The notes: generated by a model from the sequence alone, not told the origin. Counted from the first letter of the stretch, positions 1 to 43,509 are shown. The stretch: 53,267 bases of DNA from an uncultured Christensenella sp. (GCA_964620655.1 CAZUJW010000007.1:1-53267), one strand, 5' to 3'. Program-made: numbers and translations.

Positions 1-3
1 TTG

Positions 4-59
4 AACCACCAGCCGGACTGGTGGTTTTCTTTAGACGATTTGATATCGTCTAAAAGAAA
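4..59. repeat. Two adjacent hairpins (REP / IS200-IS605-end-like)
   Basis: AACCACCAG-ccgga-CTGGTGGTT (4-26) followed by TTTAGACGAT..ATCGTCTAAA. Resembles hairpins flanking Y1 (TnpA) transposases in Clostridia, but no transposase is in the window. Confidence 0.4.
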
Positions 60-160
60 CAGGGCACCTATATACTCAGTGTCTTGTTCTTCTTTGGTAA
101 CGGCACCAAACTCCGAAATAGTCTTTACAGACGAATATTCGAGGGTTCGGATTATTACCG

Positions 161-168
161 CTTGGCGG
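161..168 (+). other. Putative attL core CTTGGCGG
   Basis: Identical to 12064-12071. The sequence to its left forms a TCCGAA..TTCGGA hairpin that would follow the tRNA in the empty site. Confidence 0.65.
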
Positions 169-279
169 CACGGGTGAAAGTCAGATTGAATTATTGATAG
201 GAAAAACGATGTGTTTTGTTGTTGAAATTCTTTATTTCAAAGCAATTTAACAAGACCCTTGTACCATTCTTGATAACCT

Positions 280-302
280 TGTCGCAATAAGTAATTGCGG
301 CA
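280..302. promoter_or_regulatory. Imperfect palindrome TGTCGCAAT-N5-ATTGCGGCA
   Basis: 8 of 9 bp form an inverted repeat near the element left end; function unknown. Confidence 0.3.
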
Positions 303-361
303 CAAACAAAGTCGGAACAGCGACAATTAAAATTTGCCATTGCTCCTATTCCTTCTATTTT

Positions 362-402
362 AATCCACTGTTAATAAAAACATAAAATCCAAACAGTGGA
401 TT
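362..402. promoter_or_regulatory. 11-bp perfect inverted repeat, candidate operator
   Basis: AATCCACTGTT-N19-AACAGTGGATT immediately upstream of the -35 box of the HTH/rhuM promoter. Confidence 0.5.
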
Positions 403-407
403 TATGA

Positions 408-436
408 TTGATTTTTTGCGAGTTATATGGTATAAT
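408..436 (+). promoter_or_regulatory. sigmaA promoter
   Basis: TTGATT-17-TATAAT, with TG of an extended -10. Confidence 0.65.
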
Positions 437-471
437 CGGTTAAAGAGTTTTATTTGAGGCGGTGCGATAAG

Positions 472-684
472 ATGAAGGTAAGCTACAAAAAACTATGGAA
501 ACTCCTTATCGATAAGGATATGAAGAAAAAAGATTTGCGGATTGCTACGGGAATAACCACGACGGCACTTGCGAAGCTCGGCAAAAACGAACACGTCAGC
601 ACCGAAATTCTTGCAAGAATCTGCAAAGTTCTGAATTGTGATATCGGAGACATTGTTGAAGTCGTGAACGAGGAGAAAGAATGA
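472..684 (+). CDS. Cro/C1-type (XRE, HTH_26-like) transcriptional regulator
   Basis: MKVSYKKLWKLLIDKDMKKKDL...CDIGDIVE is the typical small clostridial HTH; ATG 472 follows GAGG. Confidence 0.9.
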   Translation: MKVSYKKLWKLLIDKDMKKKDLRIATGITTTALAKLGKNEHVSTEILARICKVLNCDIGDIVEVVNEEKE

Positions 685-1694
685 TGCCGAACGAAATTCA
701 ATTTGTATTATATAATATCGACAAAGAAGATGTAAACGTAAAAGTCGCCATAAAAGACGACACAATCTGGGTTACGCAACGCGGTATGGCGGAGCTTTTT
801 GATTGCTCTGCCGACAATATTTCTTTGCACTTAAAAAACATTTATCAAGACGGAGAATTACAAGAGTCTGCAACTGCCGAGGATTTCTCGGTAGTTCAGA
901 TCGAGGGTTCTCGTCAAGTATCGAGAAATTTAAAGTTTTATAATCTCGACGCCATTATATCCGTCGGATACCGCGTAAACTCTCGTCGCGCCACACAATT
1001 CCGCATCTGGGCGACGAACGTATTGAGGGAATTTATCCAAAAAGGCTTTGTGCTTGACGACGACCGCTTGAAGCAAGGCGAAAGCGTTTTCGGGAAGGAT
1101 TATTTCCGCGAGTTGCTCGAAAGAGTCCGTTCAATCCGCGCGAGCGAGCGCAGAATATGGCAACAAATCACCGATATTTTTGCCGAATGCAGTATAGATT
1201 ACGATAAAAATTCCCCCGTCACGCAAGAATTTTACGCCACCGTGCAAAACAAATTCCATTATGCCATTACGGGACAAACGGCGGCGGAAATTATTTACGA
1301 CAAAGCAGACAGCAAAAAAGACCATATGGGACTTACGACGTGGAAAAACTCCCCCGACGGAAGAATTTTAAAATCCGACGTAACCATAGCCAAAAACTAT
1401 CTCGACGAAAAACAGATACGCAGGCTGGAAAGAACTGTGTCCGGATTTTTCGATTATGTGGAAGATTTAATCGAAGAAGAACGCACCTTTACAATGCGGC
1501 AATTTGCAGAATCCATAAATGCGTTTTTAGAGTTCCGCAAATACAAGATTTTGCAAGGTAAAGGCTCGGTCTCAAAACTCGAAGCCGACAGAAAAGCCGA
1601 ACGGGAGTACGACGCGTTCAACAGAACGCAACAAATAACGTCCGACTTCGACAGACAAGTCAAAAAACTGCTTGACGGCAAAAAAGATGATTAA
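681..1694 (+). CDS. rhuM: RhuM-family (virulence RhuM) DNA-binding protein
   Basis: Motifs W.TQ..MAELF, YNLDAIISVGYRVNS.RATQFR.WAT, GLTTWKNSP.GRILKSDV.IAKNYL. Confidence 0.9.
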   Translation: MMPNEIQFVLYNIDKEDVNVKVAIKDDTIWVTQRGMAELFDCSADNISLHLKNIYQDGELQESATAEDFSVVQIEGSRQVSRNLKFYNLDAIISVGYRVNSRRATQFRIWATNVLREFIQKGFVLDDDRLKQGESVFGKDYFRELLERVRSIRASERRIWQQITDIFAECSIDYDKNSPVTQEFYATVQNKFHYAITGQTAAEIIYDKADSKKDHMGLTTWKNSPDGRILKSDVTIAKNYLDEKQIRRLERTVSGFFDYVEDLIEEERTFTMRQFAESINAFLEFRKYKILQGKGSVSKLEADRKAEREYDAFNRTQQITSDFDRQVKKLLDGKKDD

Positions 1695-1742
1695 TTTTTA
1701 ATACAATCAAATTTATTTAGTAGTAATAAGGAGAAACAGTTT

Positions 1743-3443
1743 ATGCCGACGTTGGAATGGATAGGAAAGGAAAAAGTAATCAATCATCATCAGGACGTGC
1801 CTTTCCGTCTGTTGGATAAAAAATATACGTACAATGCGGAAAACTCCGAAAATATGATTATTCATGGGGACAATCTGCTTGCGCTTAAATCCCTTCTTCC
1901 CGAATACGAAGGGAGGGTTGATTGCATTTACATAGATCCGCCGTATAATACAGGGAAAAAGGAAGGACAATGGGTCTATAGCGACAATGTGAATGACCCA
2001 AGAATTAAAAAATGGATCGGCGAAGTGGTTGGCACAGAAGGCGAAGATTTATCAAGACACGATAAGTGGCTCTGTATGATGTATCCTAGATTAAAACTTT
2101 TACACAAATTGCTGTCTAACAAAGGTGTTATTTTTATTAGTATTGATGACAATGAGTTAGCGAGCCTTAAACTGTGTTGCGATGAAATTTTCGGCTCTAG
2201 TAATTTCATAGGATATCTTTCCGTTGAAATAAACCCAAAAGAAAGAAAAAATTCGGATTATATATCTATTAGCAACGATTATTGTGTTATATACGCTAAA
2301 AATAAAAAAGATACATATTTCTTGGAGAATATTCCTAAGGATAAAAAAGATTTATCTGTTGATGAAAACGGAAATTTAGTTCATAACAGTGGCAAACGTG
2401 TACTAGTCGGTGAAAATTCATTTAATAATATAGTTCAAGATTTTAACTCTAAAAAGCATTATACTGTTTACTATAACGCTGAACAATGTGATATGATATT
2501 AAAAAAAGAAACATCGTTAAGCGAGATGGACGACAAGTTGATATCTAAAGGATATGTGAGATATTGTTCTTACTCCGCTGAAAACTTTGTAGAAAACACT
2601 TATACTGCTGAAAAAATAGTTGAACTGTTTGAAAATAAAGCTTTAGACTTTAAAAATGGGAAAATTTACGAAAAGAATTTTAGCAGTTCTATTAGAATAA
2701 AAAGCATTCTTTCAAATAGAAATTATCAAACTTACGATTCTAATGGAAATATTATAGATTATAAAATAGATGTAAAAACTACTTCGGCTGGACAAGAATT
2801 AAAAGACATTTTTGAAACAACGGCTACGATTTTCAATAATCCTAAAAATAAAGGGTTGATAGAAATTCTAATTTCTTTGATTGACAATAAAAACGCCTTG
2901 GTTTTAGACTCTTTTGGCGGCTCAGGGACAACCGCACATGCTGTTTTAGACTTAAACAAAAAAGGCGGCAATAGAAGATTCATTCTCGTGGAAATGATGG
3001 ACTATGCTGACACCGTTACTGCCGAGAGGGTGAAACGTGTAATTGACGGTTACGGTGAAGGAAATAAAGCGGTTGAAGGATTGGGCGGAGATTTTTCTTA
3101 TTACGAGTTAGGTATGCCCCTTTTCGACGAGGATAAAAATCTGAACGAGGACGTGCCGGAAAAAGAAATCCGCAAGTACGTTTACTATATGGAAACGAAA
3201 CAGCGGATAGAAGCGCATACGGACGACAACGAGTATTTTCTCGGCAAGCACAACGATACGGCGTATTACTTCTACTACGAAAAAGAAAGATTGACCACGT
3301 TAAACGCGGAATTTCTTGCTACCGTAAAGACAAAGGCGACAGGGTATCTGATTTACGCCGATGTGTGCGCGCTTGCAAAAGACATGCTGGACGAATACGG
3401 GATTACATTCAAAAAAATTCCGCGCGACATTAAAAAACTGTAA
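1743..3443 (+). CDS. mod: Type III restriction-modification DNA methyltransferase (Mod)
   Basis: GDNL..LK, IYIDPPYN catalytic motif, VLDSFGGSGTT SAM-binding motif; directly upstream of Res. Confidence 0.9.
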   Translation: MPTLEWIGKEKVINHHQDVPFRLLDKKYTYNAENSENMIIHGDNLLALKSLLPEYEGRVDCIYIDPPYNTGKKEGQWVYSDNVNDPRIKKWIGEVVGTEGEDLSRHDKWLCMMYPRLKLLHKLLSNKGVIFISIDDNELASLKLCCDEIFGSSNFIGYLSVEINPKERKNSDYISISNDYCVIYAKNKKDTYFLENIPKDKKDLSVDENGNLVHNSGKRVLVGENSFNNIVQDFNSKKHYTVYYNAEQCDMILKKETSLSEMDDKLISKGYVRYCSYSAENFVENTYTAEKIVELFENKALDFKNGKIYEKNFSSSIRIKSILSNRNYQTYDSNGNIIDYKIDVKTTSAGQELKDIFETTATIFNNPKNKGLIEILISLIDNKNALVLDSFGGSGTTAHAVLDLNKKGGNRRFILVEMMDYADTVTAERVKRVIDGYGEGNKAVEGLGGDFSYYELGMPLFDEDKNLNEDVPEKEIRKYVYYMETKQRIEAHTDDNEYFLGKHNDTAYYFYYEKERLTTLNAEFLATVKTKATGYLIYADVCALAKDMLDEYGITFKKIPRDIKKL

Positions 3444-3453
3444 GAGGTGGGAT

Positions 3454-6048
3454 ATGGAATTAAAGAATTTTCAGAAACGAGTGATAAACGACCTTAACAG
3501 ATATTGCGAACTCCTGAACGAAACGGACAGTGTTTCGGGCGCGTACAAAGCGTTCTGGGCGGAAAAGAACGTTACGGTAGGTTTCGGAGGTATGCCCTCT
3601 TACAACAATACGATTGAAAACACTCCGCACGTTTGTTTCAAGGTGCCGACGGGCGGCGGAAAAACCTTTCTGGCGTGCAACGCCTTAAAAACCATTTTCG
3701 GCAATTTGCCGAGCAAGAAGGCGCAACTCGTCGTGTGGCTTGTGCCGTCGGAGGCGATTCTGTCGCAGACGTTGAAAAATCTTTCCGATCCTATGCACGA
3801 TTACAGGCGGAAAATCGAAGCGGATTTTAACGGGCGCGTGCAGGTTTACAGCAAACAGCAGGTTTTGGACGGGCAACAATTCAATCCGACGACGGTGAAC
3901 GAACAACTCAGTATCGTCGTTATGAGTTTCGACAGTTTCCGCATAAAGAACAAGGAAGGTCGTAAGGTATATCAGGAAAACGGGAATTTACAGTCCTTTT
4001 CAAAGTTTATCCCCACGCCCGACACTCGTATAAAGGACGTGGACGACACCGCGCTTATTCAGGTATTCAATCAACTTTCGCCCGTAGTTATCGTGGACGA
4101 AAGCCACCATACCACCGGCGAACTCAGTATCGAGATGCTAAAAAATCTCAACCCGAGTTTTATTCTCGACCTTACGGCAACTCCAAGACAAAACAGCAAT
4201 ATTATTTCATACGTAGACGCGGCGCAACTCAAAGCCGAAAATATGGTAAAACTGCCCGTCATCGTGTATAATCGTCCTTCGCAGGAAGAAGTGATTGCCG
4301 ACGCACTGGATTTGAGAAATAAACTGGAAGAAACGGCACGCGCCGAAGCGAGCGGAAGATATATTCGTCCTATCGTGTTGTTTCAGGCGCAACCCAAACA
4401 AGCCGAAAATAAGGAAACGTTTGAAAAACTTAAAAAACGGCTTGTAGATAACGGTATTCCCGAAGAAGAAATCGCCATCAAAACGGCGGAAATAAACGAA
4501 CTGAAAAGCGTAGACTTACAATCGTCCGATTGCAAAATCAAGTACATAATTACTGTAAATGCGCTTAAAGAAGGTTGGGATTGTCCGTTTGCGTATATTC
4601 TCGCAACGCTTGCAAACAAGAAATCTACCGTTGACGTAGAACAGATTTTAGGGCGAGTTCTGCGGTTGCCATATACGCAACAGAATGACAGTAAGTTTTT
4701 GAATTTGTCTTACGTGCTTACCTGCTCCAACGACTTCCATATGACGATTACGAAAGTAATAAAGGGCTTGAACGACGCAGGTTTCAGCGAAAAAGAATAT
4801 CGTATTGCCGAAGAAAAACCGATTGTAACAACGCCGGTACCCGTTCAGGAAAAAGTAGATTTCGTCACGGAAGAAGAATTTTTGCAATTTGACGACGATG
4901 CGTTGAAAGAGATTATCGACCGCAGACAAAATGCGGACGAAACGAACGTAATCGACGCTATGCTCGAAAGCGCGGAGGCAAACAGCGACGCTTATGACAC
5001 CGCATTAAAACAAGCGGAAGCGGAACCCGTAGGCGATTTGCCGTTGGAGGTGAGAAGCAAAGTGAACACATATCCTATTTACGAGCAATTCAGGGAAGAA
5101 GCATTGTCGCTCGAAATCCCGCAGTTTTTTGTTAAAACACCGCCGAGCATTTTTACAATGCTCAATCCCGATGATAAATCTCTTTTGGCAAAAGAAGATT
5201 TGTCGGACGGTTTTATGCTCAAAGACAAGGATGCAACCATAGATTTCGGCTCGGCTTTGGAATCCGTCGTTGAGGTTGACGTTCAAAAGAACGAGCGTCC
5301 GAAATACAGACAACTATCCGAAACGGAAAGCGAATACTTCAAAGGAATGTTGAAGAATTTGCCGCCAGAAAGCCGTGTAAGAAACTGCAAATTGGCGATA
5401 AAAAGTATTCTGGAAAAGACGGACAGCGTTGCGGGAAGTGATTTAACGGCGTATATCAATCGTATCGTCGAAAATATGAACGGCGACGAACTTGTTGCTA
5501 TGGAAAATAATATTTACGGGTATGCGGCGAAAATCAAATCGAAGATTGAAACGCTGCTCCACGAATACCGCAGACAAAAATTCAATCACCTGCTTGAAAC
5601 GGGGCAGATAGAATGTCTGCCGTCGTTCAGATTAAAAAGAGAAATCAATCCGGGAACTCCGTTTGGACTTCTTTCAAAGTCGCTTTATACGTCGGAACAA
5701 GCGATTAATAATTTTGAACGCAAAGTTATCGAAAAAGTATCTGCACTGCCCAACTTCAGGTGGTGGCACAGAAATATGGACAGGCTTGAGTTTTTCATAA
5801 ACGGATTTTTGAACCACTATCCCGATTTTATCGTAATGACAAACAGCGGAAAAGTCGTTATGATAGAAACCAAAGGCGAACATCTTGTATCCAACGATGA
5901 TAGTCGCGCAAAAGCGGAACTCGGTAAAATCTGGCAGGCACAAGCAGGAGGACAGTATCGTTATTATATGGTTGGTGAATACGACGTCGCAAGCAATCCG
6001 AACGCTATATCCCTCGACGAATTATTAAAGATAATGAGCGAGTTGTAA
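3454..6048 (+). CDS. res: Type III restriction endonuclease / helicase subunit (Res)
   Basis: PTGGGKT Walker A, DESHH, LTATP, LKEGWD, QILGRVLR, C-terminal YPDF..IETKG nuclease motif. Start reassigned to ATG 3454 after the GAGGTGG RBS. Confidence 0.9.
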   Translation: MELKNFQKRVINDLNRYCELLNETDSVSGAYKAFWAEKNVTVGFGGMPSYNNTIENTPHVCFKVPTGGGKTFLACNALKTIFGNLPSKKAQLVVWLVPSEAILSQTLKNLSDPMHDYRRKIEADFNGRVQVYSKQQVLDGQQFNPTTVNEQLSIVVMSFDSFRIKNKEGRKVYQENGNLQSFSKFIPTPDTRIKDVDDTALIQVFNQLSPVVIVDESHHTTGELSIEMLKNLNPSFILDLTATPRQNSNIISYVDAAQLKAENMVKLPVIVYNRPSQEEVIADALDLRNKLEETARAEASGRYIRPIVLFQAQPKQAENKETFEKLKKRLVDNGIPEEEIAIKTAEINELKSVDLQSSDCKIKYIITVNALKEGWDCPFAYILATLANKKSTVDVEQILGRVLRLPYTQQNDSKFLNLSYVLTCSNDFHMTITKVIKGLNDAGFSEKEYRIAEEKPIVTTPVPVQEKVDFVTEEEFLQFDDDALKEIIDRRQNADETNVIDAMLESAEANSDAYDTALKQAEAEPVGDLPLEVRSKVNTYPIYEQFREEALSLEIPQFFVKTPPSIFTMLNPDDKSLLAKEDLSDGFMLKDKDATIDFGSALESVVEVDVQKNERPKYRQLSETESEYFKGMLKNLPPESRVRNCKLAIKSILEKTDSVAGSDLTAYINRIVENMNGDELVAMENNIYGYAAKIKSKIETLLHEYRRQKFNHLLETGQIECLPSFRLKREINPGTPFGLLSKSLYTSEQAINNFERKVIEKVSALPNFRWWHRNMDRLEFFINGFLNHYPDFIVMTNSGKVVMIETKGEHLVSNDDSRAKAELGKIWQAQAGGQYRYYMVGEYDVASNPNAISLDELLKIMSEL

Positions 6049-6136
6049 CTGAACAAAGATATTCTTGTTTAGTGTGGTGATCTTTATTGTTTTTTTCGGA
6101 ATAATATGATAAAATAAAATTAGGAGGCGTTCTATA

Positions 6137-7015
6137 ATGAATAACAATAATATTCTTAATAGATTTTTCTCCAGGTCAATCCTTAATGAGATTGTAGTGA
6201 ATGGACACAACACTTGCTATGGAGAAATAATAAAAAGGTATTCCATTGATAAAGACGAAACGAATCAAACTATAATTTCGTCAATCTATTCGGTTTTAGC
6301 ATCTTCTCATCGAAATGAGTATTTTTATAAAAATACACTTTTGAACAATTTGATCATTAAAAAGCATAAATTGTATACAACCAAAGTGCTGACAGAACTG
6401 CCTATTAACAAGTCTATTGCCGATTTTATCACACTTAATGGAAAAGCTGTGGTATACGAAATAAAAACAGAATTAGATAACTTGGATAGAATCGAAGCAC
6501 AAATTCGAGATTATTATAAGTGTTTTCCCTTTGTTTGTATTGTTACTTGTAAAACACATTTGCCCAAAGTTAAGGAATTGTTCGCTAACACTAATGTTGG
6601 CATATATTGGTTTACTAACAGAAATGCTATCAAGGTGGAGCAAGAACCCCAACTGGAAGATTCTTATTTGGAATATGGCGCATTGTTTAAATTGCTACGA
6701 AAATATGAATTTGAAACCATATTGAAGAAAAATTTCCATTCATTGCCAAAAGTATCGCAATTTGATTATTATGCTGAATGCTATAAGTGGTTTATCAAAA
6801 TTGATATTAACAGAGTATTAAAAGATATGCTAGATATTCTAAAGCAACGTTGTATAATACGCGTCGAACAGTTTAATCAAGTTCCATTAGAATTAAAAAT
6901 GTTGGTGTACCAATCTAATTATACTGATAAACAGTATTCTATGCTGGAAACGTTCTTAAATTCAAAATATATCGACGGAGGGCTTGAAAATGTATTTCCC
7001 GTATTTGAGGGGTAG
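6137..7015 (+). CDS. sce7726-family protein, PD-(D/E)xK nuclease-like
   Basis: RNEYFYKN..., EL..NKSIADF...VYEIKTELDNLDR..QI.DY: a D..EIK nuclease-type motif; first gene of a trio. Confidence 0.75.
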   Translation: MNNNNILNRFFSRSILNEIVVNGHNTCYGEIIKRYSIDKDETNQTIISSIYSVLASSHRNEYFYKNTLLNNLIIKKHKLYTTKVLTELPINKSIADFITLNGKAVVYEIKTELDNLDRIEAQIRDYYKCFPFVCIVTCKTHLPKVKELFANTNVGIYWFTNRNAIKVEQEPQLEDSYLEYGALFKLLRKYEFETILKKNFHSLPKVSQFDYYAECYKWFIKIDINRVLKDMLDILKQRCIIRVEQFNQVPLELKMLVYQSNYTDKQYSMLETFLNSKYIDGGLENVFPVFEG

Positions 7016-7913
7016 ACAATTTGAATTGCTTGCAATTCGAGAACTAATCGAACATAACTGTATATCGAATAATATTATACCAATAATAGAACCTGTTAGA
7101 GCTTCTTCTACTTTGTTAAAAACGATTATTCAATGCAAAGAAGCAAAGCAGCATATTGCTTTTATAATAAACCCACATGTCGGATCTTTTTCTAAAGAGT
7201 TTAGAGAATTTGAAAAAAGTAACGAACTTTTAACAGCTATTAAAGATTCAACTATAAAGGCTTGCGTTGTAGATCAATCCATTAACGATCAAGTCAATCG
7301 TCTAACAAAGACCTTTAATTCATCAATAGAGGACTCCTTGTTTGTTTTCGATAAAAAGGATTATATTGAATCATATTTATTGGCCATCAATAATAGCCAC
7401 GCTAAATTCAATCTTATTCCAGATGAAAGGGATTTTCGTAGAAGTATTCGAGATAACAGAGTATTATTAAGTGATGCTTTTGACTCAAAAGATCGTAATT
7501 CTGACTATTCTGATGCGCCAGAATTGTATTCACGAGATCAAATATATTACAAAGAAGATGGGTATATAGGATTTGCGGATTATTCGATAGTAGGAAATAG
7601 GTTTTCGGAAGCAGGTTTTGCTCCATATTGTTTAGTTATACATATTGTTTATTTTGATGAGAAAAATCAATTACTAATTAGACATTTTAAATCATCTTCA
7701 AATGAAGATGCAACCGACCCTGCCAACAAATTTAGAGAAGCCTTACAAAAGTTGCTTTTATGGAATGAGAAACAAAAATTAGATACATATGCGATGCGTC
7801 AATTTAAAAAGATGTATGAAGATGGGGCCTATCCAGGATTAGGGACAATTAAAAAGTTATCATTAATGCACCATATAGAATTGGTAAACAAATTTCTTAA
7901 TGAACCGCTATGA
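6990..7913 (+). CDS. sce7725-family protein (Beta-protein-like)
   Basis: MYFPYLRGRQFELLA.REL, PIIEPV, GFADYSIVG...GFAPY...IH, GLG.IKKLS..HH. Start ATG 6990 follows GGAGG and overlaps the previous gene. Confidence 0.75.
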   Translation: MYFPYLRGRQFELLAIRELIEHNCISNNIIPIIEPVRASSTLLKTIIQCKEAKQHIAFIINPHVGSFSKEFREFEKSNELLTAIKDSTIKACVVDQSINDQVNRLTKTFNSSIEDSLFVFDKKDYIESYLLAINNSHAKFNLIPDERDFRRSIRDNRVLLSDAFDSKDRNSDYSDAPELYSRDQIYYKEDGYIGFADYSIVGNRFSEAGFAPYCLVIHIVYFDEKNQLLIRHFKSSSNEDATDPANKFREALQKLLLWNEKQKLDTYAMRQFKKMYEDGAYPGLGTIKKLSLMHHIELVNKFLNEPL

Positions 7914-8998
7914 AAATATGTAAAAATTGTTTTGCCGATATCGAATTGAAGACCATCGTTTCAAGCCATAGACAAATAGGCGTATGTGATATATGTGGAC
8001 ATGAGGATTATATTTATGACACGACCTTGAATAGTGCATTGATTGATACCATTGACGATTTTATGAATATTTATTCAAAAGCCAATGATGATACTCCTCA
8101 AAAATATAGGATGAACTTAGAAAAGGAACTAATTTATAATTGGAATATCTTTTCGATAAGTTGTGCATACAAAGTAAAGAAGATAGTAGATAGTATATAT
8201 GCATTTTCTGAAGACACAAAAAAGAGATTTGACACTACATTGTTTGATGGAGATGTATATATTCCTTACTTTTTAAATAGTGATTATTTAGAACTGCACT
8301 CTATTATTAAAAATAAACAGTGGGACGAGTTTACATATAGTATAAAACACATAAACAGGTATCACTCAGATATTTTAAACAAAGAACAACTTGATTGTTT
8401 TCTTGATCCACTGGTTATCGATATAAATATTGGTACGCATTTTTATAGGTCGCGCATTTCAGACATCAAAGGGTTTTCTGCTTCTGAAATGGGAATGCCT
8501 CCAACCGAAAGAGCTAGGGCGGGAAGAATAGGAGCGGAAGGAATCCCCTGCTTTTATCTGGCAAACGATGTCGATACATCTATAAAAGAAGTTCGGGCGG
8601 GGGCTTTTGATTATATTACGGTTGCAAAATATAAAGTTAAAAACCCTATTAAGGTTGTTGATTTGAGATTATTAGATCATATTAGTCCTTTTTCAATATC
8701 GGATCCAGCAACCCTTGCGATTAATCGAGAAACGTTATTAAGAATTAAATCTGAAGTAGAAAAACCTGTGCGGCTCATAGAAAACAGTATTGAATATGTT
8801 CCAATTCAGTTTATTTGTGATTACATTAGAAGTAAAGGATATGACGGAATAATTTACAGTAGCACAATGAGTACTACAGGGTACAATCTATCAGCATTCT
8901 CTTCAGAGAATTTCAAATTTGTGAGCAAAGCAGTATATTACATTAAAGATATATCAGTGGTTTCGGAAAAAGCGACAAAACACACAAAAATCGAATAA
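7910..8998 (+). CDS. RES-domain protein with N-terminal Cys/zinc motif
   Basis: CKNC..CDIC N-terminus; FYRSR, GR.GAEGIPCFYLA, EVR, YDGIIYSS carry the R/E/S signature; ATGA overlap with sce7725. Confidence 0.85.
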   Translation: MKICKNCFADIELKTIVSSHRQIGVCDICGHEDYIYDTTLNSALIDTIDDFMNIYSKANDDTPQKYRMNLEKELIYNWNIFSISCAYKVKKIVDSIYAFSEDTKKRFDTTLFDGDVYIPYFLNSDYLELHSIIKNKQWDEFTYSIKHINRYHSDILNKEQLDCFLDPLVIDINIGTHFYRSRISDIKGFSASEMGMPPTERARAGRIGAEGIPCFYLANDVDTSIKEVRAGAFDYITVAKYKVKNPIKVVDLRLLDHISPFSISDPATLAINRETLLRIKSEVEKPVRLIENSIEYVPIQFICDYIRSKGYDGIIYSSTMSTTGYNLSAFSSENFKFVSKAVYYIKDISVVSEKATKHTKIE

Positions 8999-9086
8999 TA
9001 CAGCTATGCTTTTGGGTAAGATTTTTTTATGAGTTTCTCTATTATATATTGACTTAGTTTTTAGAGAAAATCTCAATAACACAAAT

Positions 9087-9122
9087 AAGAAAGTCTGATT
9101 TCGGTCAGTCTTTCTTTTTTTG
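9087..9122 (+). terminator. Rho-independent terminator after the RES gene
   Basis: AAGAAAG-T-CTGA / TCAG-T-CTTTCTT stem plus T tract. Confidence 0.65.
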
Positions 9123-9165
9123 CGTAGTTGTCAAAAAAATTTTTGCAATTTTTTCTTAATAACCT

Positions 9166-9546
9166 TGTAAAACCCATTGTCAAATGTCCTATATAAGTGA
9201 GGGACATTTTTCTTTTGCGAAAAACACGAAGTTTTTGCCCTCTATTGTCCATATAAAGAGAAAAAATCTTTGCCTTAATGAAAAGTTTCCAGTAAACCAT
9301 TAAGTTTCGTACCGAAAATGTCCAATATAAATAGAAGGAGTTTTAAGATTTTTTCTAAAACACCCCGCCAAAAGGTATGGTAAGTGTCCAATTATAGTAG
9401 GAGGATTTTTTGAAAAAGTTCAGTTAAATACCCTAACAAAGAGATGAAAACTTTCCAATATAAATAGAGGATATTTTCAAAAACTTACGAAAAACACCCC
9501 CTCAAACAGGCAAGCAAATGTCCATATATAGTGAACGGAAAAGGAG
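9166..9546 (+). repeat. Degenerate six-unit array, period about 61-73 bp
   Basis: TCC(A)ATATA..AG..G(A)GG cores with TCC at 9187, 9248, 9321, 9387, 9454 and 9521; four are preceded by AAA(C/T)AC 22-23 bp upstream. Confidence 0.7.
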
Positions 9547-9795
9547 ATAACAGATCATGAGTTACAAACAAGTGTACCCGCCTTAGCAGGCAGAAAACGG
9601 AAAGCAAAAGCCCAAAAAAAAATTGGAAAACGAGTACTTTTTACAAGCAGGATAAGGTTTTTGCAATCTATTTCAAAAACGATACGCTGAACAAGTCGGA
9701 AACCGACTTTTCGGAAAGGGCAACATTTGCTCGTATCCACAAGAAGAAATCGCCCTACTCTTACTAAAAATATCGGCGGACTAACGAAAAAGCAC

Positions 9796-9824
9796 TTGAC
9801 TTACGCACACAAAGCGTGTAAAAT
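9796..9824 (+). promoter_or_regulatory. sigmaA promoter for the RHH-recombinase module
   Basis: TTGACT-17-TAAAAT; the spacer contains the palindrome ACGC-N7-GCGT. Confidence 0.65.
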
Positions 9825-9871
9825 ATAGTCGTCGTATTAATACGATTATATATTCACGGAGGAATGAAAAG

Positions 9872-10162
9872 ATGGCAAAGTCAAGAAAGGAAAAAGACAA
9901 AAGATACGAAGAAAGGCACAAGGAAGAACGCAAAGCCAAAAACGTTATATGGGGAACGAGCGTTCCGAGAAAGACGGCGGAAGAAATAAACGAGTTTCTG
10001 AAAAAGTGCGGCTATACGAAGGTAGAACTTATACAGGCGGGCTACGAAGAACTGTTAGCCCGACACGATACCGCCTTTGCAAAATTAAAGGACGGCTACG
10101 ACGACTTTTTCGAGAGCGAACTTACGAAATTCGCAGAAGAAAGAAACACAAACAAAACATAA
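9872..10162 (+). CDS. Small protein, ribbon-helix-helix-like
   Basis: GGAGG RBS; a charged N-terminus is followed by a beta(VIWGTSVP)-helix-G-helix pattern. Confidence 0.6.
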   Translation: MAKSRKEKDKRYEERHKEERKAKNVIWGTSVPRKTAEEINEFLKKCGYTKVELIQAGYEELLARHDTAFAKLKDGYDDFFESELTKFAEERNTNKT

Positions 10163-10285
10163 TCCGTAAGACGAGATACTCTCGCCTTGCGGAAATCTGA
10201 GATAAGGAGGATTTTGCGGTAATGGTGAGAGAACATTACAGCCATCAGGAAAGAGAACATAGTATCCGCGCAATAAGTATGAACG

Positions 10286-10483
10286 TTGAAGCGGATACAA
10301 GAAAACACCGTTGAGGTCAATCTGTCAACGGAACACAAAGAAAAAGGCAGATTAAATCTGCCGAAAGAAAGAATACAAACAAGCGCAAAAATTTTAGCCG
10401 ATATTTTACTCGATTATGCGAGAAACGGCGGTAATATGGACGATTTAACGCCCGAGAGCGTATTCGGCAGGAGGAAGCAATGA
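10286..10483 (+). CDS. Small hypothetical protein overlapping the recombinase start
   Basis: 65-aa ORF with TTG start and weak RBS; its stop overlaps the recombinase ATG. Confidence 0.4.
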   Translation: MKRIQENTVEVNLSTEHKEKGRLNLPKERIQTSAKILADILLDYARNGGNMDDLTPESVFGRRKQ

Positions 10484-12105
10484 AAAAACGAGTAGTGATA
10501 TATGCAAGATTCAGTTCGCACAGTCAGACGGAACAGTCTATCGAAGGACAACTTCGGGAATGCTACGAGTATGCAAAAAGACAAGACCTTCTCGTTGTAG
10601 CCGAATACATAGACCGTGCGCTCACGGGGACTACGGACAAACGACCGGAATTTTTAAGAATGATTGAGGACAGTAAGAAAAAGACTTTCGACTATGTTCT
10701 TGTTTACCAACTTGATCGCTTTGCCCGTAACCGTTACGACAGCGCGAATTACAAAGCAAAGTTAAAGAAAAACGGCGTACGTGTTCTATCTGCAAAGGAA
10801 AACATAACGGAAGACGCAAGCGGAATTTTAATCGAGGGCGTGCTGGAAAGTATGGCGGAATATTATTCCGCCGAACTTTCGCAAAAGGTAAAACGCGGAA
10901 TACGCGAAAGCTACGAAAAAGGTTACTTCATCGGCGGATACGGTTTATTTGGTTATGATATCGTAGATAAAAAATGGGTAATAAACTCTTTTGAAGCAGA
11001 TATTGTCAGAGATATTTTTACAAGATACAAAAATGGCGAAAAGGCGAAAGAAATTATTGCAAGGCTGATCGGACAAGGCATTAAGACGAAAGCCGGTTCG
11101 TCGTTCAATATGAACAGTCTTGCAAGGATAATCCGCAACGAAAAATACATCGGGAAAGTAACTTCGCACGACACGGTTTACACTAACGTCATACCGCCTA
11201 TCGTGGACGAAGAACTTTTTTATGAATGCAACGCCATTATGGACAAGCATAAACATAAACCGCGCGACAGCAAGAGCGAACAGCCATATATTTTAAGCGG
11301 AAAATTGTTTTGCGGATTTTGCGGTAGTCTGATGACCGCCGAAACGGGGACAAGCCATACAGGTAAACTTCATCACTATTACAAGTGTTTCGGAAGAAAA
11401 CGCAACAAACACAGTTGTAAAAAGGCAAATTACAGACAGCAAGACCTTGAAGATCTGGTATTCGGCACGACGGTTAAATACGTTCTGCAACCCGACGTAA
11501 TTCAAACCGTTGCCGAACAGGTCGTTTCAAAATTCAATTCGGAGATAACAAAGACCGCAACGCTTGAAAATCTCGAAAACGAGTTGAAAGCCAAAGAAAA
11601 AGCGATAAATGCACTGCTTGCCGCCATAGAACAAGGCATAGTGACTAAATCCACCAAAGAACGACTGATTTCTCTCGAAACGCAAAAAGAGGAATTAGAG
11701 AGCAAAATTTCTCTTGAAAAGGCTCGGCAGATAAAACCGCTCGAAGTGGACAGAGTAAAAGCGTTTTTAACCTATTTTGCCCGTAAAAAGTATGAAAACG
11801 GGCAAGAAAAAAACGAGTTTTTCAACTCGTTCATAAACCGTGTTATTTTGTATGACGACAAAATTTTAATCTTTTACAACACCGACGATAATCACCCGAC
11901 GGTAATTAAGAGGAAAGACACGGAAGAATTTATTTCGCACTTTAATGACATAGCGAGCAACTGCAAAACCGCAACAAACGACTGTCCGAACACAACGGGA
12001 AACAACAGCCCCATCGTACAAAAGGAAAACTCGCTTGAACCTCAATGGTTCAAACGAGTTTCACTTGGCGGAGCCGAAGGGATTCGAACCCTTGTGCCAA
12101 GTTAA
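10480..12105 (+). CDS. Large serine recombinase (integrase)
   Basis: YARFSS catalytic Ser, SIEGQ, LDRFARN, recombinase domain, LSGKLFCGFCG..YYKC zinc ribbon and coiled coil. The last ~13 codons are read from the tRNA antisense strand. Confidence 0.95.
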   Translation: MKKRVVIYARFSSHSQTEQSIEGQLRECYEYAKRQDLLVVAEYIDRALTGTTDKRPEFLRMIEDSKKKTFDYVLVYQLDRFARNRYDSANYKAKLKKNGVRVLSAKENITEDASGILIEGVLESMAEYYSAELSQKVKRGIRESYEKGYFIGGYGLFGYDIVDKKWVINSFEADIVRDIFTRYKNGEKAKEIIARLIGQGIKTKAGSSFNMNSLARIIRNEKYIGKVTSHDTVYTNVIPPIVDEELFYECNAIMDKHKHKPRDSKSEQPYILSGKLFCGFCGSLMTAETGTSHTGKLHHYYKCFGRKRNKHSCKKANYRQQDLEDLVFGTTVKYVLQPDVIQTVAEQVVSKFNSEITKTATLENLENELKAKEKAINALLAAIEQGIVTKSTKERLISLETQKEELESKISLEKARQIKPLEVDRVKAFLTYFARKKYENGQEKNEFFNSFINRVILYDDKILIFYNTDDNHPTVIKRKDTEEFISHFNDIASNCKTATNDCPNTTGNNSPIVQKENSLEPQWFKRVSLGGAEGIRTLVPS

Positions 12106-12156
12106 TGGCTAACGCATTTCGAGTGCGCCCCGTTATGACCACTTCGATACAGCTCC
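12066..12156 (-). tRNA. tRNA-Ser(CGA)
   Basis: Reverse complement GGAGCTG..GCGCA-CTCGAAA-TGCGT, long variable arm, AAGGG-TTCGAAT-CCCTT, CGGCTCC-GCCA. Confidence 0.97.
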
Positions 12157-12488
12157 ATGTGTTTGAGATTAAGTTGTTTTGTTGTTAGCCATTGCAAGCT
12201 AACGCATTCGCGGGCAATACCGACTTCAGTCGATAGAGGAACAAGGTAAGGAGTTCGCCCGCCAGATTGCTACGCAATTAGCGAGTTACTGCCCCGTTAT
12301 GACCACTTCGATACAGCTCCATGTGTTTGAGATTAAGTTGTTTTGTTGTTAGCCATTGCAAGCTAACGCATTCGCGGGCAATACCGACTTCAGTCGATAG
12401 AGGAACAAGGTAAGGAGTTCGCCCGCCAGATTGCTACGCAATTAGCGAGTTACTGCCCCGTTATGACCACTTCGATACAGCTCCATGT
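12127..12488 (-). repeat. Tandem 164-bp units containing the tRNA-Ser 5' half (2 full units plus a third 34-bp copy)
   Basis: A 34-bp block (tRNA nt 1-30 plus 4 upstream nt) occurs at 12127, 12291 and 12455; the two 130-bp spacers are identical by eye. Confidence 0.95.
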
Positions 12489-12531
12489 ATGTTGTTCGAT
12501 TTAATATATTGCAATCAAATCCACGCCGATA

Positions 12532-12560
12532 AGTATACTACACTTTTTATCTTTTTACAA
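12532..12560 (-). promoter_or_regulatory. sigmaA promoter driving the repeat units and tRNA-Ser
   Basis: Minus strand TTGTAA-17-TATACT. Confidence 0.7.
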
Positions 12561-12619
12561 CTCATTGAAAAAAATTTTTCCATATGTTACAATATTTTGG
12601 TTATCGGAAATAATTTTCG

Positions 12620-13429
12620 ATGAAAAAATTTTTACAAACGGAGAATTTAATGAATTATCAAGCGGTATTTTGGGACTGGAACGGAACTCTTCTGGATGAC
12701 ACTCAGGCTAATATCGACGCGGTGAACGTTTCTTTGGCAAAAAGGAACTTGCCTTTTCTTACAAACGAGTTTCACGCCGAGCATTTTGCTTTCCCGATAC
12801 AGAACTATTACGAAGCGATAGGGTTCGATTTTACGAAAGAGTCGTACGCGGACTTAGCCGACGAATTCATAAACAACTATCTTGCGCAGGAGTACGGTTT
12901 GCGTAAAAACGCCAAAAAAACGCTGGAAAAACTTTTTCTCAATTCCGTAAAGCAATATATTCTCAGCGCGTGCGAGAAAAATATTCTGTTCGAAGCGTTG
13001 GACAAATACGGACTTAATTGTTTCTTTACCGATATTATCGCATTGGACAACGTACACGCGGTAAGCAAAATCGAAGCGGGCAAGGCGTATCTTGCCGAGC
13101 ATCGTCCCGACGGTAAAATTCTTATGGTGGGCGACACGCATCACGACATAGAAGTGGCGACCGCTCTCGGTATGGATTGCGTACTCGTCCGCAGCGGCAA
13201 CCTCTCCGAACGCAGGCTGCAAGAAACCGGCGTAAAAGTCGTCGACGATATTTACGACGTCGTCGATATAGTTTTGGGAACGAAAAAAGGCAAACGCACC
13301 GATTTTTTAACCCCCGAAAAAGCGGAAAGACGGTCGTTCAACCTTGAAGAAACCAACAGAAAATTTTCGGAAAAGTATCACGATTTTTACGACGACGTGA
13401 AAAACACGAATAAAACGGAAGATTGGTGA
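12620..13429 (+). CDS. HAD-family hydrolase (phosphoglycolate phosphatase-like)
   Basis: FWDWNGTLLDD motif I, ILSA motif II, MVGDTHHD motif IV. Confidence 0.9.
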   Translation: MKKFLQTENLMNYQAVFWDWNGTLLDDTQANIDAVNVSLAKRNLPFLTNEFHAEHFAFPIQNYYEAIGFDFTKESYADLADEFINNYLAQEYGLRKNAKKTLEKLFLNSVKQYILSACEKNILFEALDKYGLNCFFTDIIALDNVHAVSKIEAGKAYLAEHRPDGKILMVGDTHHDIEVATALGMDCVLVRSGNLSERRLQETGVKVVDDIYDVVDIVLGTKKGKRTDFLTPEKAERRSFNLEETNRKFSEKYHDFYDDVKNTNKTEDW

Positions 13430-14662: not shown

Positions 14663-15220
14663 CTATTCTTCTTGAAAAACATAGTAACTTATCAAGTTAA
14701 AAACTATCAGTTCCTTTTTATTCTCATCGATGTAAACGTAACTGCTAGTTTTATCCCACGGATCATCGTAAAAATTGTATTGCTTTATTCCGTCAACCGT
14801 TTTTTTGTAAAAAATCAAACCTTCCGTTTGCAGCGTTCCCGAACTAAACAATCCGGTATAAGGAGAAACATCCGCTCCTTCGTATTTATACGTTCCGTCA
14901 CCATAATCGTCAAACTCTATTAAAAAATAAGAACCGTTTCCGGCACCATCTCCTCTATATACGTATTTTTTTACATTTTTTGTTGCACCACTTCCGGTAG
15001 TAGTACACATAACTACAATTAACGGAATTATCAAAATTAAAACAAGTGTGCTAATCGTTATTATTAATCCTTTTTTCTTTTTACTTTCCGTTTCGTTGAC
15101 GTTCGATACTACCGTTTCTTTTGCTTCAGAGGTGTCAGTGTTATCCAGTGCGGTTCCACAATTTGCACAAAACTTATTTGCGTCTTCGTTCATAAATCCA
15201 CATTTCTTACAGCTTTTCAT
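14663..15220 (-). CDS. Zinc-ribbon domain membrane protein
   Basis: CKKCG..FCANCG zinc ribbon, one transmembrane helix, then an extracytoplasmic domain. Confidence 0.8.
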   Translation of the reverse strand: MKSCKKCGFMNEDANKFCANCGTALDNTDTSEAKETVVSNVNETESKKKKGLIITISTLVLILIIPLIVVMCTTTGSGATKNVKKYVYRGDGAGNGSYFLIEFDDYGDGTYKYEGADVSPYTGLFSSGTLQTEGLIFYKKTVDGIKQYNFYDDPWDKTSSYVYIDENKKELIVFNLISYYVFQEE

Positions 15221-15404
15221 AAAAATCTCCTTTTTATTTTACAATATCAAATCATCTGTCCGTTTTATGGGATAAATGGAAGGACTAAAGGCAAATGGTT
15301 TACAAAATTTTCAAATACCGTCTTGTTTTTTTCTATTATCACCTATACTGTAAAATATGGACTTGTTAACAACAAAATTTCGTCCGCATAATAAGGAGTA
15401 ACTA

Positions 15405-16220
15405 ATGATAGAAAAATTTTATACGCATGATTTTGATGAAGAATTTAAAAGTATAGAAATAGAGATGGATTCCGATAAAATCTATTTCTATAAAATACAC
15501 GAGGAATTAATGCCGTTTGTCGGGACGGATTATAAGAATTCGGACATAAAGGTTTTGTTTGTAGGAGAAAGTCATTACGTTGATAATAATTGGCACATGA
15601 ATGAGAAAAATTGGAGAAGTTATGATATAGGGAAATGGGTAAAACCCGATTGGCAAGAGATATTTAAACCTTTTAGTTATGACAAAGAAGGAAATCAATT
15701 AGAAACCAAAGATGAAAATTTTACGAGTTGGTTTAACACAAGAATGCATGCAAATAGAGTCGGAAATCCTACCGCTTCGGAAAAAGCTCTTAAAAATCTA
15801 ATAAAGAGACCTTTGGGGGTTTTAAATCAAACCTTTGGATTTACATTCGGAATAAAAAACATAGCATTTTTTAATTTCTTCCAATATCCAAGTCTCTGTA
15901 ACGGTCAAACCATCCGAAATTCTATCAACAATAAAACGTGGGAAGAATTATTTGCATTTTCATTAGAGCTCGTAGCACGTGCCGTGGAAATCATTAAACC
16001 TGATATTATTATTTTATTAAGCGCCGATCTTTATGACAAGAAAGATGCAATAAAAAGCAGAATATCAGAAATATCCGACCCAGGTGTGGCTATTTGCGCT
16101 ACTTATCATGCGGGAGATAATAGGGTTTGGTATCATAAATATAAAAAACTTAATGATAAAAAGCCCGGCGACTATTTAGCCGACGAACTACAAAAAGCCT
16201 TGCAAGGTTTAAAAAAATAA
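15405..16220 (+). CDS. Hypothetical protein, uracil-DNA-glycosylase-superfamily-like
   Basis: PFVG..Y..KVLFVGESHY, FFNFFQYP, IKPDIIILL, YH motifs; AAGGAG RBS. Confidence 0.6.
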   Translation: MIEKFYTHDFDEEFKSIEIEMDSDKIYFYKIHEELMPFVGTDYKNSDIKVLFVGESHYVDNNWHMNEKNWRSYDIGKWVKPDWQEIFKPFSYDKEGNQLETKDENFTSWFNTRMHANRVGNPTASEKALKNLIKRPLGVLNQTFGFTFGIKNIAFFNFFQYPSLCNGQTIRNSINNKTWEELFAFSLELVARAVEIIKPDIIILLSADLYDKKDAIKSRISEISDPGVAICATYHAGDNRVWYHKYKKLNDKKPGDYLADELQKALQGLKK

Positions 16221-16250
16221 AGTATAAATGAAACGTATTCCTTTGCTAAA

Positions 16251-16315
16251 GTGGAGAGGCAATCTGCTGGGTGGAGAGACAATCTGCTGTGTGTGGAGAG
16301 ACAATCTGCTGTGGA
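16251..16315. repeat. ~20-bp tandem repeat GTGGAGAG(A/G)CAATCTGCT x3
   Basis: Copies at 16251, 16271 and 16293, plus a partial GTGGA at 16311. Confidence 0.9.
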
Positions 16316-16406
16316 CATTCCATCCGATGAACGTTTTATGCTACAATATATGATAGCATAAAAATGGTGGATGGAATGCCACTATAAAAGGTTGATTGGA
16401 TGATAT

Positions 16407-17198
16407 ATGATAGCTGAAAATTATAGACAAAAAGCCGACGAACTCAATACTCAATGGAAACGAGAAAAAGATGAGGAGCCAATATATAAATCGAGTGAAA
16501 ACTCGCAAGCGAACAATTTCATTTTTGACGGAATAGCGAACCCGAACGAATGGTATAAACAAGATATCCGCCCTCTCTTTATCCTAAAAGAAGCTTATAA
16601 TAAATCTACAAGCGATGACGAATGGAATGAAATAGATTTTTTCTTATCAGATACTATCTCACTCCCGGGCAGACCAACAGGAGAAATTGCTTCAAAATAT
16701 AAAACGTGGCGTGTCTTATGCTGTTGGGCATCATATATTTTCAGTCAAAATTATGATACACAAATAACGTGGGAAAACGAACACCTCAGGAAAATCGCTC
16801 TTATAAATATAAAAAAATACGGAGGACAGAATCCGTCGAATGATAAAGATTTAGAAAATCATGCAAAAAAGCACGCAAACTTAATCGTAGACCAAATCAA
16901 ACTTATTAAACCTACGATTATTATATGTGGTTATACCGGTTGGCTAATGGATATCGTTTGGGAAAAGATATTCAAAGAGAAAGTACGCAAAAACAAAAAA
17001 AACGGTAGAGTATACGATATCGTCATCCCCGAACAAGAGGAAATACGGCTGATTGATTTTTGGCATCCTGCCTCGCCAAAATCTCACAGAGATGATTTTA
17101 TAGCCGATATCGATGCAGCAATGGGATGGTTACCTTCCCCTTATATGCACAGTAACGAAGAACCACGAAACGAGTGTGAACTCAACGAATGTAAATAA
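16407..17198 (+). CDS. Hypothetical protein, uracil-DNA-glycosylase-superfamily-like
   Basis: F.FDGI, PLFILKEAY, ALINIKK.GG, QIKLIKP.IIICG, FWHPA motifs. Confidence 0.6.
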   Translation: MIAENYRQKADELNTQWKREKDEEPIYKSSENSQANNFIFDGIANPNEWYKQDIRPLFILKEAYNKSTSDDEWNEIDFFLSDTISLPGRPTGEIASKYKTWRVLCCWASYIFSQNYDTQITWENEHLRKIALINIKKYGGQNPSNDKDLENHAKKHANLIVDQIKLIKPTIIICGYTGWLMDIVWEKIFKEKVRKNKKNGRVYDIVIPEQEEIRLIDFWHPASPKSHRDDFIADIDAAMGWLPSPYMHSNEEPRNECELNECK

Positions 17199-17321
17199 CA
17201 AAATAACAAAATAGAGCTTACTAATCCGAAACATAAAACATATCACTGTTTTATTGCGACTTTTTTGGTATAATAAATATGTTATTATTATAGTAATCTT
17301 AGTTGTTACGGCGGAGGTATA

Positions 17322-18305: not shown

Positions 18306-18322
18306 TCAAAAAACAACTACGG

Positions 18323-18955: not shown

Positions 18956-18970
18956 TTCTTTTTCTCCTTA

Positions 18971-19819: not shown

Positions 19820-19912
19820 TTTCTCTCCTGTCCGTTTATTTTAATAATCGTTTTTAATTGTCCCGATTTTGGTACAAAATAAATGTTTTTATTATTATCA
19901 GGAGAACTGATT

Positions 19913-20293: not shown

Positions 20294-20312
20294 ACCTCTT
20301 AACAGCCCTTTT
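20277..20312. terminator. Bidirectional terminator
   Basis: GGGCTGTCAAGA / TCTTAACAGCCC stem between convergent genes. Confidence 0.6.
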
Positions 20313-20348
20313 GGGATATCCTTAAAATCTTATTTCAGATACCGAAAA

Positions 20349-43490: not shown

Positions 43491-43509
43491 GTGCTATCAC
43501 CTCATAATC

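Follow-up and report, generated by a model that had tools for sequence, protein, structure and literature searches.

Transfer RNA (tRNA) genes are well-known insertion sites of mobile elements, and their use is attributed to one class of enzyme: only tyrosine integrases are known to target tRNA genes according to the tRNA-island reference (PMC4383910), while a review of integrative mobilisable elements (IMEs) places serine-recombinase elements inside protein genes or describes them as having low specificity (PMC5704250). Here we describe a 53,267-bp stretch of DNA from an uncultured Christensenella sp. (CAZUJW010000007.1; "the window" means this stretch at its full length), in which an island of about 11.9 kb with the gene of a large serine recombinase (LSR) ends at a tRNA-Ser(cga) gene. 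We consider it quite probable that the locus as a whole consists of an LSR-mobilised island at the 3' end of tRNA-Ser, lying in tandem behind a phage arm. A first-pass annotation of the stretch had remarked that tRNA targeting usually goes with tyrosine integrases, and indeed it is unusual for serine integrases (PMC4383910). Our literature search, which did not reach the large LSR catalogues, returned no description of a tRNA-targeting LSR or of the present family. Many independent junctions now document a whole LSR clade targeting tRNA genes, against the statement in PMC4383910; what is new is an LSR-mobilised family of islands and phages that specifically targets tRNA-Ser, with stacking at the same tRNA.

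The tyrosine-integrase islands of tRNA genes (Islander class, P4-like) share with the present locus the tRNA 3'-end site, the regenerated gene, tandem build-up and defence cargo. Unlike them, our element has no PF00589 domain and displaces a tRNA fragment of 6-8 bp instead of tens of bp, which places it outside that class. Serine IMEs of Firmicutes (Tn4451 family, streptococcal IMEs; PMC5704250) are likewise small, encode one serine recombinase and are flanked by very short repeats, but those known insert in dispensable protein genes or in genes of integrative and conjugative elements and carry mobilisation functions, whereas the island has a tRNA target and no detected relaxase.

Phage LSRs (Listeria A118/LI integrase, phiC31, Bxb1, SPbeta SprA) have the same Resolvase, Recombinase and zinc-ribbon set and the same short att sites, with an imperfect dyad, a 2-bp asymmetric crossover and a 5-bp motif shift between attB and attP. 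Those that are characterised target protein-coding or intergenic sites, whereas the present family targets tRNA genes. Here, moreover, the T-arm of the tRNA serves as B-type half-site, and the integrase open reading frame (ORF) contains the P arm of attP and takes its stop codon from the target.

The closest functional analogue is the staphylococcal cassette chromosome (SCC, SCCmec), which CcrAB/CcrC serine recombinases insert at the 3' end of rlmH. Both are LSR-moved islands that lack conjugation and packaging genes and occupy the 3' end of an intact housekeeping gene, and both have exchangeable cargo and tandem arrays with recombinase-less cassettes sharing a short core (seen here in the relatives L036 and L015; L and P numbers are our handles for loci and proteins). 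Unlike SCC, our element uses a tRNA and not rlmH, has a single recombinase gene, carries anti-phage and not antibiotic-resistance cargo and occurs in anaerobic Firmicutes.

Island boundaries and recombinase family

The octamer CTTGGCGG occurs on the + strand of the window at the two core positions of Table 1 and nowhere else. Any 8-mer is expected by chance about 0.8 times per strand in a window of this size, so the repeat by itself is weak evidence and the boundary test had to be comparative, with the many relatives retrieved by exact-protein look-ups and cluster searches. The left end, from position 163 on, is 98.8-99.0% identical to L002 and L004. It recurs in three further contexts (L002/L004, L015/L018 and L052), which makes four different left contexts with the window, and homology begins at TGGCGG in each. 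The right end (9449-12071) is 93-96% identical in relatives, and homology ceases directly after TTGGCGG in all of them. The neighbours there are tRNA-Ser(tga) in L006-L008, tRNA-Ser(gga) in L034, a truncated tRNA end in L033 and other elements in L005, L015, L035 and L036, giving at least six right contexts in which homology stops at this sequence. TGGCGG is the reverse complement of a tRNA 3' end (the last two acceptor-stem bases, the discriminator G and CCA), and the right core copy overlaps the encoded CCA end of tRNA-Ser(cga). GC content is 38.3% in the element and 43.7% in the rest of the window. By these comparisons, the region from 169 to 12063 is a discrete integrated mobile island of about 11.9 kb bounded by two TGGCGG cores. 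The first-pass annotation had described just such a unit, inserted at the 3' end of a tRNA gene, and both points are borne out.

We also compared two relatives with the same cargo. The elements of L005 and L034 are 93-96% identical over cargo and backbone, and they sit at different sites, L034 at tRNA-Ser(gga) and L005 beside another LSR gene. The same cargo (96% identity) at different sites indicates recent movement.

The recombinase has the full domain set of an LSR, namely PF00239 (residues 5-148, E = 2.9e-30), PF07508 (172-256, E = 1.1e-17) and PF13408 (271-328, E = 5.8e-13), as well as the N-terminal motif VIYARFSS, in agreement with its earlier designation as a serine integrase. Its ORF reads through the crossover without a stop and ends with 11 full codons (AEGIRTLVPS and the stop) in antisense to the tRNA. 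The 3' end of the gene contains the P arm of attP. The predicted attP sequence implies that in the excised form the ORF would end differently, and among relatives (P0001-P0134) the C-terminal tail varies with context. Since the ORF reads across the junction, the tail reports the insertion target and differs between integrated, tandem and excised forms.

This property was used to survey targets across the family. The 90%-identity cluster of the window LSR has 1580 members, with 96% identity between the window protein and the cluster representative, and 7992 homologues were found at E <= 1e-50. Among 111 full-length family representatives (60-96% identity), 54 have an explicit tRNA-antisense tail, ...FKRVSLGG followed by x-x-G-I-R-T... 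(antisense acceptor stem and T-arm); 31 further tails are cut by contig ends yet compatible, so that the two groups together make up ~77% of the 111. Many tails extend into ...GFQDRLVMTASI, which by our own decoding, and not as the result of a tool, reads as antisense tRNA-Ser D-arm. The tRNAs called were Ser-cga, -tga and -gga beside window-type elements and Ser-gga and -gct beside related phages. Judged from these tails and junctions, targeting of tRNA-Ser is a property of the whole clade. The family is very large and uncharacterised, and it occurs in anaerobic Firmicutes metagenomes; the assignment of the window's host to the anaerobic Firmicutes is based on AdhE, FeFe-hydrogenases, SpoIIE and PEPCK. 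Two unrelated 522-aa proteins with an epimerase-like NAD-binding N-terminus (P0003, P0011) are listed in the LSR 90%-identity cluster, probably as a database clustering artefact.

Attachment sites and the probable crossover

Joining position 12071 to 169 gives the attP TTCAA-N5-TTTCAC-TTGGCGG-CACGG-GTGAAA-N6-TTGAA, whose two arms are offset by one nucleotide. Relatives have GTGCAA in place of the inner GTGAAA, which leaves the outer TTCAA/TTGAA as the conserved motif. For comparison of the arms, the junctions of the window and its relatives were aligned on TGGCGG. The left-end (P') arm is conserved across contexts in L002, L004, L015, L018 and L052, and the right-end (P) arm is identical or nearly so in L005, L006, L015 and L033-L036. 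Results showed that a motif GTTC[AG][AG]A (GTTCRRA) ends 11 nt before TGGCGG both in the island right-end arm and in the phage arm to the left of the island, and that this motif matches the T-arm sequence of the tRNA. In the phage arm that lies inside the phage LSR gene, T[TC]TGAAC is found 16 nt after the core, the same place as ATTGAAT in the island. On the tRNA side, the T-loop sequence TTCGAAC or TTTGAAC starts 11 nt after the core in every tRNA (five tRNA junctions), including TTCGAAC at 12083-12089 in tRNA-Ser(cga), which forms the B-type half-site. The motif is therefore 5 bp nearer the centre in the tRNA half-site (11 nt) than in the element-borne P'/K arms (16 nt). A shift of this size is known for the Listeria LI integrase, in which the outer (ZD) motif of attB half-sites is shifted inwards by 5 bp relative to attP half-sites (PMC3783163); at our locus it is found for the tRNA half only.

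The dyad is centred on the last G of TGGCGG, and the next base is C in the island attP and A in the tRNA. Because GG is central and identical in both partners while the base after it differs, it is the sole compatible crossover dinucleotide, and the crossover most likely occurs there, at the complement of tRNA positions 71-72. The attP written in the first-pass annotation is thus reproduced, and the GG proposed there is the most likely crossover. The sites have the form expected of LSR att sites of about 40-50 bp, an imperfect dyad around a non-palindromic 2 bp with a flanking repeat of 6-8 bp, with the GG as the putative crossover. We also considered a dyad centred on the G/C of TGGCGG, in which GGGTTCGGAT (143-152) would be paired with the tRNA T-arm, and rejected it, as a palindromic crossover would lose polarity. 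The left motif has P-type spacing because it belongs to the phage arm, and this also counts against the G/C-centred dyad.

The island and the phages share core and motif and carry the integrase gene on opposite arms of attP; therefore, the island LSR ends beside the tRNA and the phage LSR lies far from it. Pairwise, the island and phage LSRs are 31-41% identical, and they have the 6-bp core and the T-arm-like half-site code in common.

From these elements the following mechanism can be proposed. The LSR would recombine the 3' end of tRNA-Ser with the island attP, in which the core joins the right-end arm within the LSR gene to the left-end arm. The crossover would take place at GG, and the common CCGCCA would regenerate the tRNA intact. 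Recognition would rely on a GTTCRRA-like half-site that matches the T-arm and lies 5 bp nearer the crossover in the tRNA than in attP. If this recognition model is true, the target sites are short and conserved in many bacteria, which would be of interest for engineering non-model Firmicutes.

The phage arm on the left and the order of the elements

The first-pass annotation had predicted an empty attB of the form TTACCG-CTTGGCGG-AGCCGAAGG, in which the DNA to the left of the island would directly adjoin the tRNA. We scanned one genome per species as well as metagenomes for this site. Two real matches were obtained, L010 (Christensenella sp. UBA7588) and L013, and in both of them the tRNA is tRNA-Ser(gga) and not tRNA-Ser(cga); a tblastx comparison of these loci with the window showed no synteny beyond 117 bp. 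L009, L011 and L012 come from high-GC organisms and match by chance within coding sequence for the peptide DYYRLAE; they were set aside. L010 and L013 were rejected as empty sites as well, since genes of the phage contig L045 lie beside the arm, making them prophage-tRNA junctions; the ORFs next to the arm, of 328, 132, 288 and 154 aa, have the same sizes in L045 and L013.

Window 52-168 is 96.6% identical over 117 bp to L045, in which the arm directly follows the attP core. It is 96.6% identical to L010/L013 and 94.9% identical to L042, in which the arm abuts tRNA-Ser via CTTGGCGG. The L045 attP consists of the gene of a 573-aa LSR (41% identical to the window LSR), CCGCCA and the 117-bp arm, with the homology boundary again at 52; it is flanked by RecT, RecE, repressor and integrase on one side and, among others, a Hoc-like protein on the other. 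The motif GTTCGGATTAT-N7-TGGCGG (145-168) recurs in 14 IMG/VR contigs, and the arm motif has the same spacing in the attP of L025, L026, L027 and L031. L025 represents a second phage lineage, with ERF, repressor and LSR on one side of attP and a 2844-aa polyvalent protein on the other. By this homology, window 52-160 is the tRNA-proximal end of a temperate LSR phage, or of a remnant of one. As the left flank is a phage arm, the junction at the left core is one between two elements, in a tandem arrangement. Three assemblies made with different k-mer sizes all break with a branch point near position 52, which fits a mosaic or repeated element further to the left. The array probably has its outermost attL beyond the window, a possibility that the first-pass annotation had itself named as incompatible with its proposal, and the attB it had written would instead be a prophage-tRNA junction.

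These data bear on the possibility that a single element entered a naive bacterial attB, window 1-160 being host DNA that once adjoined tRNA-Ser(cga). The core repeat and the dyad attP are real, and homologues of the left flank are joined directly to a tRNA-Ser 3' end via CTTGGCGG in L010, L013 and L042, as this explanation would require. However, the joins in L010 and L013 are to tRNA-Ser(gga), with L045 genes beside the arm, the same 117 bp lie inside an attP with phage genes on both sides, the spacing of the arm motif is P-type and not B-type, and all three assemblies break at ~52. A naive site is therefore largely refuted already, and we regard it as highly unlikely.

Alternatively, the flanks could stem from two tRNA-Ser loci (gga and cga), with homologous or LSR-mediated recombination between two resident copies producing a hybrid and a chromosomal rearrangement. 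Since the family is abundant and uses several tRNA-Ser isoacceptors, a genome could plausibly carry two copies, and the left-flank homologues that we found do adjoin tRNA-Ser(gga). Such an exchange is nonetheless unnecessary once the flank is seen as a phage arm; phages with the arm motif occur at both tRNA-Ser(gga) and tRNA-Ser(gct), and the other 41 kb of the window contain no second copy or remnant. We consider it very unlikely.

In the tandem arrangement that we favour, the locus reads phage or phage remnant, then island, then tRNA-Ser(cga), and the island was most likely inserted into a prophage-tRNA junction, which is the simplest order of events. Relatives show comparable arrangements. 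L036 has four TTGGCGG junctions (4156, 6012, 11538 and 15688) in 11.5 kb, two of them after recombinase-less segments. In L015 a segment with a truncated LSR is followed by a second element, and a cluster of 309 members has a representative whose C-terminal tail is this same type of junction. The island of L005 borders on the 3' end of another, convergent LSR gene (31-34% identical), and in L002 an LSR C-terminal remnant lies to the left of the island. Tandem cassettes as in SCC arrays are thus found in L036 and L015, and the window itself shows one extra arm only. The short segments of L036 contain only metabolic-type genes (aldo-keto reductase, abhydrolase) and resemble a cassette array. In L052 a truncated antisense tRNA-Ser 3' fragment (TTGGCGGAGAAGAAGACG, 1747-1765) lies ~170 bp to the left of the island left junction, which suggests an older, decayed insertion event.

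Several observations weigh against the tandem scheme. In the canonical LSR model, attP does not react with an attR-like site, made up of a P-type and a B-type half. Insertion at a prophage-tRNA junction needs an LSR that accepts a P-type left half, which the canonical model forbids; relaxed pairing or another route would thus be necessary. The centre of symmetry is a single base, the last G, rather than a step between two bases, and in the arm alignment the three other left contexts lack the B-type motif. Neither an excised circle (attP junction) nor a virgin attB was found in the public sequences searched; a scan of viral contigs for an island-type right end gave only a remnant (L033/L038), and a search for LSRs with an attP-form C-terminus, made among cluster representatives only, gave just a 40-aa ORF at the left junction of L052. 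In addition, the sequence to the left of position 52 matches no phage contig found, so that an intact prophage and a 117-bp remnant are both possible. The predicted junction of the island circle is GAGTTTCAC-TTGGCGG-CACGGGTGAAAG, and that of the island-free array is GGATTATTACCG-CTTGGCGG-AGCCGAAGGG.

Some of the same facts would be expected if the island were a decayed, immobile remnant, its recombinase or sites defunct and its cores relics: no circle junction was observed, and the left junction is attP-like (P/P'), which canonical LSRs could not use for excision with attR. On the other hand, the LSR ORF has its full length and the complete set of three domains, and it shares 96% identity with the representative of its cluster of 1580 members. 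The arms, too, are intact and agree with those of relatives found at several sites, and related copies that share their cargo occupy different sites. We therefore judge decay unlikely.

Another, more speculative extension concerns movement between cells. The defence islands might be hitchhikers on phages, a serine-integrase counterpart of phage satellites, with the tRNA-Ser loci acting as LSR-driven cassette arrays. Stacking occurs in either order, as phage, island and tRNA in the window and with the island next to the LSR element in L005. A composite of phage and island could then excise between the outer junctions, with a circle junction like P_A/K of L005, and a phage capsid could spread the helper-less island. 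We regard this extension as doubtful. The stacking of islands and LSR phages at the same tRNA bears on how defence genes spread without conjugation genes.

Backbone, cargo and neighbouring features

Comparison with relatives separates a backbone (163 to ~1740 and 9449-12071) from a variable middle (Table 1). The HTH gene, part of the backbone, stands at the left end of every relative that carries different cargo. The middle of the island contains adjacent genes for a Mod methyltransferase and a Res helicase-nuclease, which together constitute a Type III restriction-modification (R-M) system; Res has 864 aa in public gene calls, and its longest ORF begins at 3361. In relatives this middle is different: L005 and L034 have a Type I R-M system with PIN, T5orf172 and a KAP NTPase, L036 has a Dam-like methylase, and L015 has an N6-methylase with an S subunit and, beyond the truncated-LSR junction, a second segment with Mrr and a DUF4411/M78 pair. 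Judging by these loci, the family has a fixed backbone (HTH, RhuM, ..., 96-aa ORF, LSR) and exchangeable defence cargo. A fixed LSR backbone with swappable cargo amounts to a common vehicle for anti-phage systems in gut-type anaerobes.

The first-pass annotation had called the element a pure defence cassette. The cargo is indeed of defence type (Type III R-M, RhuM/PDC-S05 and the RES gene), but the HTH and RhuM genes belong, like the 96-aa ORF, to the backbone, which leaves the middle as the one swappable part. In the three-gene block, the P4 cII-like 292-aa protein matches PF26915 on the public call and PADLOC 'cll' (E = 7e-14), the RES-domain protein matches PF08808 (E = 2.9e-14), and the PHROG matches of the block are phrog_984 and phrog_34524. 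The block is probably a further defence or toxin module.

Table 1. Coordinates of the island, its attachment sites and adjoining features in the 53,267-bp window
Feature	Position	Strand	Remarks
Arm of a second, distantly related tRNA-Ser-targeting LSR phage (by homology)	52-160		Terminator hairpin; GTTCGGA half-site at 145-151
Left core copy, CTTGGCGG	161-168	+	TGGCGG (163-168) alone common to all contexts; putative crossover GG 167-168
Island left-end (P') arm, CACGGGTGAAAGTCAGATTGAAT...	169-200	+	ATTGAAT at 185-191, 16 nt from core
49-aa Cys-rich ORF	191-340	-	Conserved left backbone; called in L001, L002, L003, L018, L052
Cro/C1-type HTH regulator, 70 aa as called	472-684	+	Start possible at 454; PF13443, E = 1.3e-19
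RhuM-family protein	681-1694	+	Backbone; PADLOC candidate defence gene PDC-S05; PF13310, E = 1.8e-108; PDLC04868, E = 1.7e-157
Type III R-M methyltransferase (Mod)	1743-3443	+	Variable cargo; PDLC03644 (MTase_III), E = 2.4e-160; PF01555
Type III restriction enzyme (Res)	3454-6048	+	Variable cargo; PDLC03650 (REase_III), E = 4e-86; PF04851
Three-gene block	6137-8998	+	Variable cargo; P4 cII-like 292-aa, uncharacterised 309-aa and RES-domain 362-aa proteins
Conserved region upstream of recombinase	9449-10483	+	93-96% identity in L005, L006, L034 despite different cargo
96-aa ORF	9872-10162	+	Backbone; a 92-98-aa ORF precedes the LSR in L005, L006, L015, L034, L036
65-aa ORF	10286-10483	+	Upstream of recombinase
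LSR, 541 aa	10480-12105	+	Resolvase, Recombinase and Zn-ribbon domains
Island right-end (P) arm	12037-12063	+	GTTCAAA half-site motif at 12048-12054, 11 nt before TGGCGG
Right core copy, CTTGGCGG	12064-12071	+	Putative crossover GG 12070-12071
tRNA-Ser(cga), intact target	12066-12156	-	ARAGORN; Rfam RF00005, 50.8 bits

We also looked for functions that could mobilise the island. The earlier statement that relaxase, replication and structural genes are absent agrees with our scans: the 10 element ORFs contain no relaxase, coupling-protein or replication domain detectable with Pfam, PADLOC or PHROGs (a cryptic oriT is possible), and no capsid, packaging, structural or satellite hijacking genes were detected, the uncharacterised ORFs matching only PHROGs of unknown function. 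Without detected mobilisation genes of its own, the element does not qualify as an IME, and it does not qualify as a prophage or phage satellite either, the sole hint in that direction being the P4 cII-like domain of the 292-aa protein. The 49-aa, 65-aa and 96-aa ORFs have no informative family match in Pfam or PHROGs; the 96-aa protein could be a candidate regulator or directionality factor. In L035 a rolling-circle Rep gene (205-1119; PF23343, REP_ORF2-G2P), absent from the window element, lies directly upstream of an 87%-identical LSR, and some family members may thus replicate after excision.

A repeat search of 8950-10500 gave weak repeats only. A 42-nt sequence occurs twice (9357-9398 and 9491-9532; 71% identical, 134 bp apart) in an 870-bp non-coding stretch, and this pair upstream of the 96-aa ORF may represent regulatory sites. 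An Rfam scan of 1-13000 gave no match besides the tRNA.

Immediately upstream of the tRNA, at 12127-12488, there is a perfect 164-bp tandem repeat (2.2 copies, 100% identical). The first 30 nt of tRNA-Ser(cga) form the beginning of each unit, which also holds a degenerate tRNA-Ser-like piece (GCTAACGCATT...), and short-read assemblies break within the repeat. Exact-protein look-ups with the right-flank genes gave no element-free tRNA-Ser(cga) locus; they returned nothing, or only contigs of the same sample broken in the 164-bp repeat. Beyond the tRNA, the region 14663-21582 contains hypothetical genes including a WYL-domain regulator (17322-18305) and may be a further accessory or defence region beside the same tRNA. 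Further to the right, and unrelated to the island, a 985-aa surface/adhesin-type protein with BspA-type leucine-rich repeats (PF13306, E = 7.5e-115) is encoded at 38195-41152. Finally, an AAA_14/DUF4143 ATPase gene (42294-44104) adjoins tRNA-Arg(acg) at 44028-44104.

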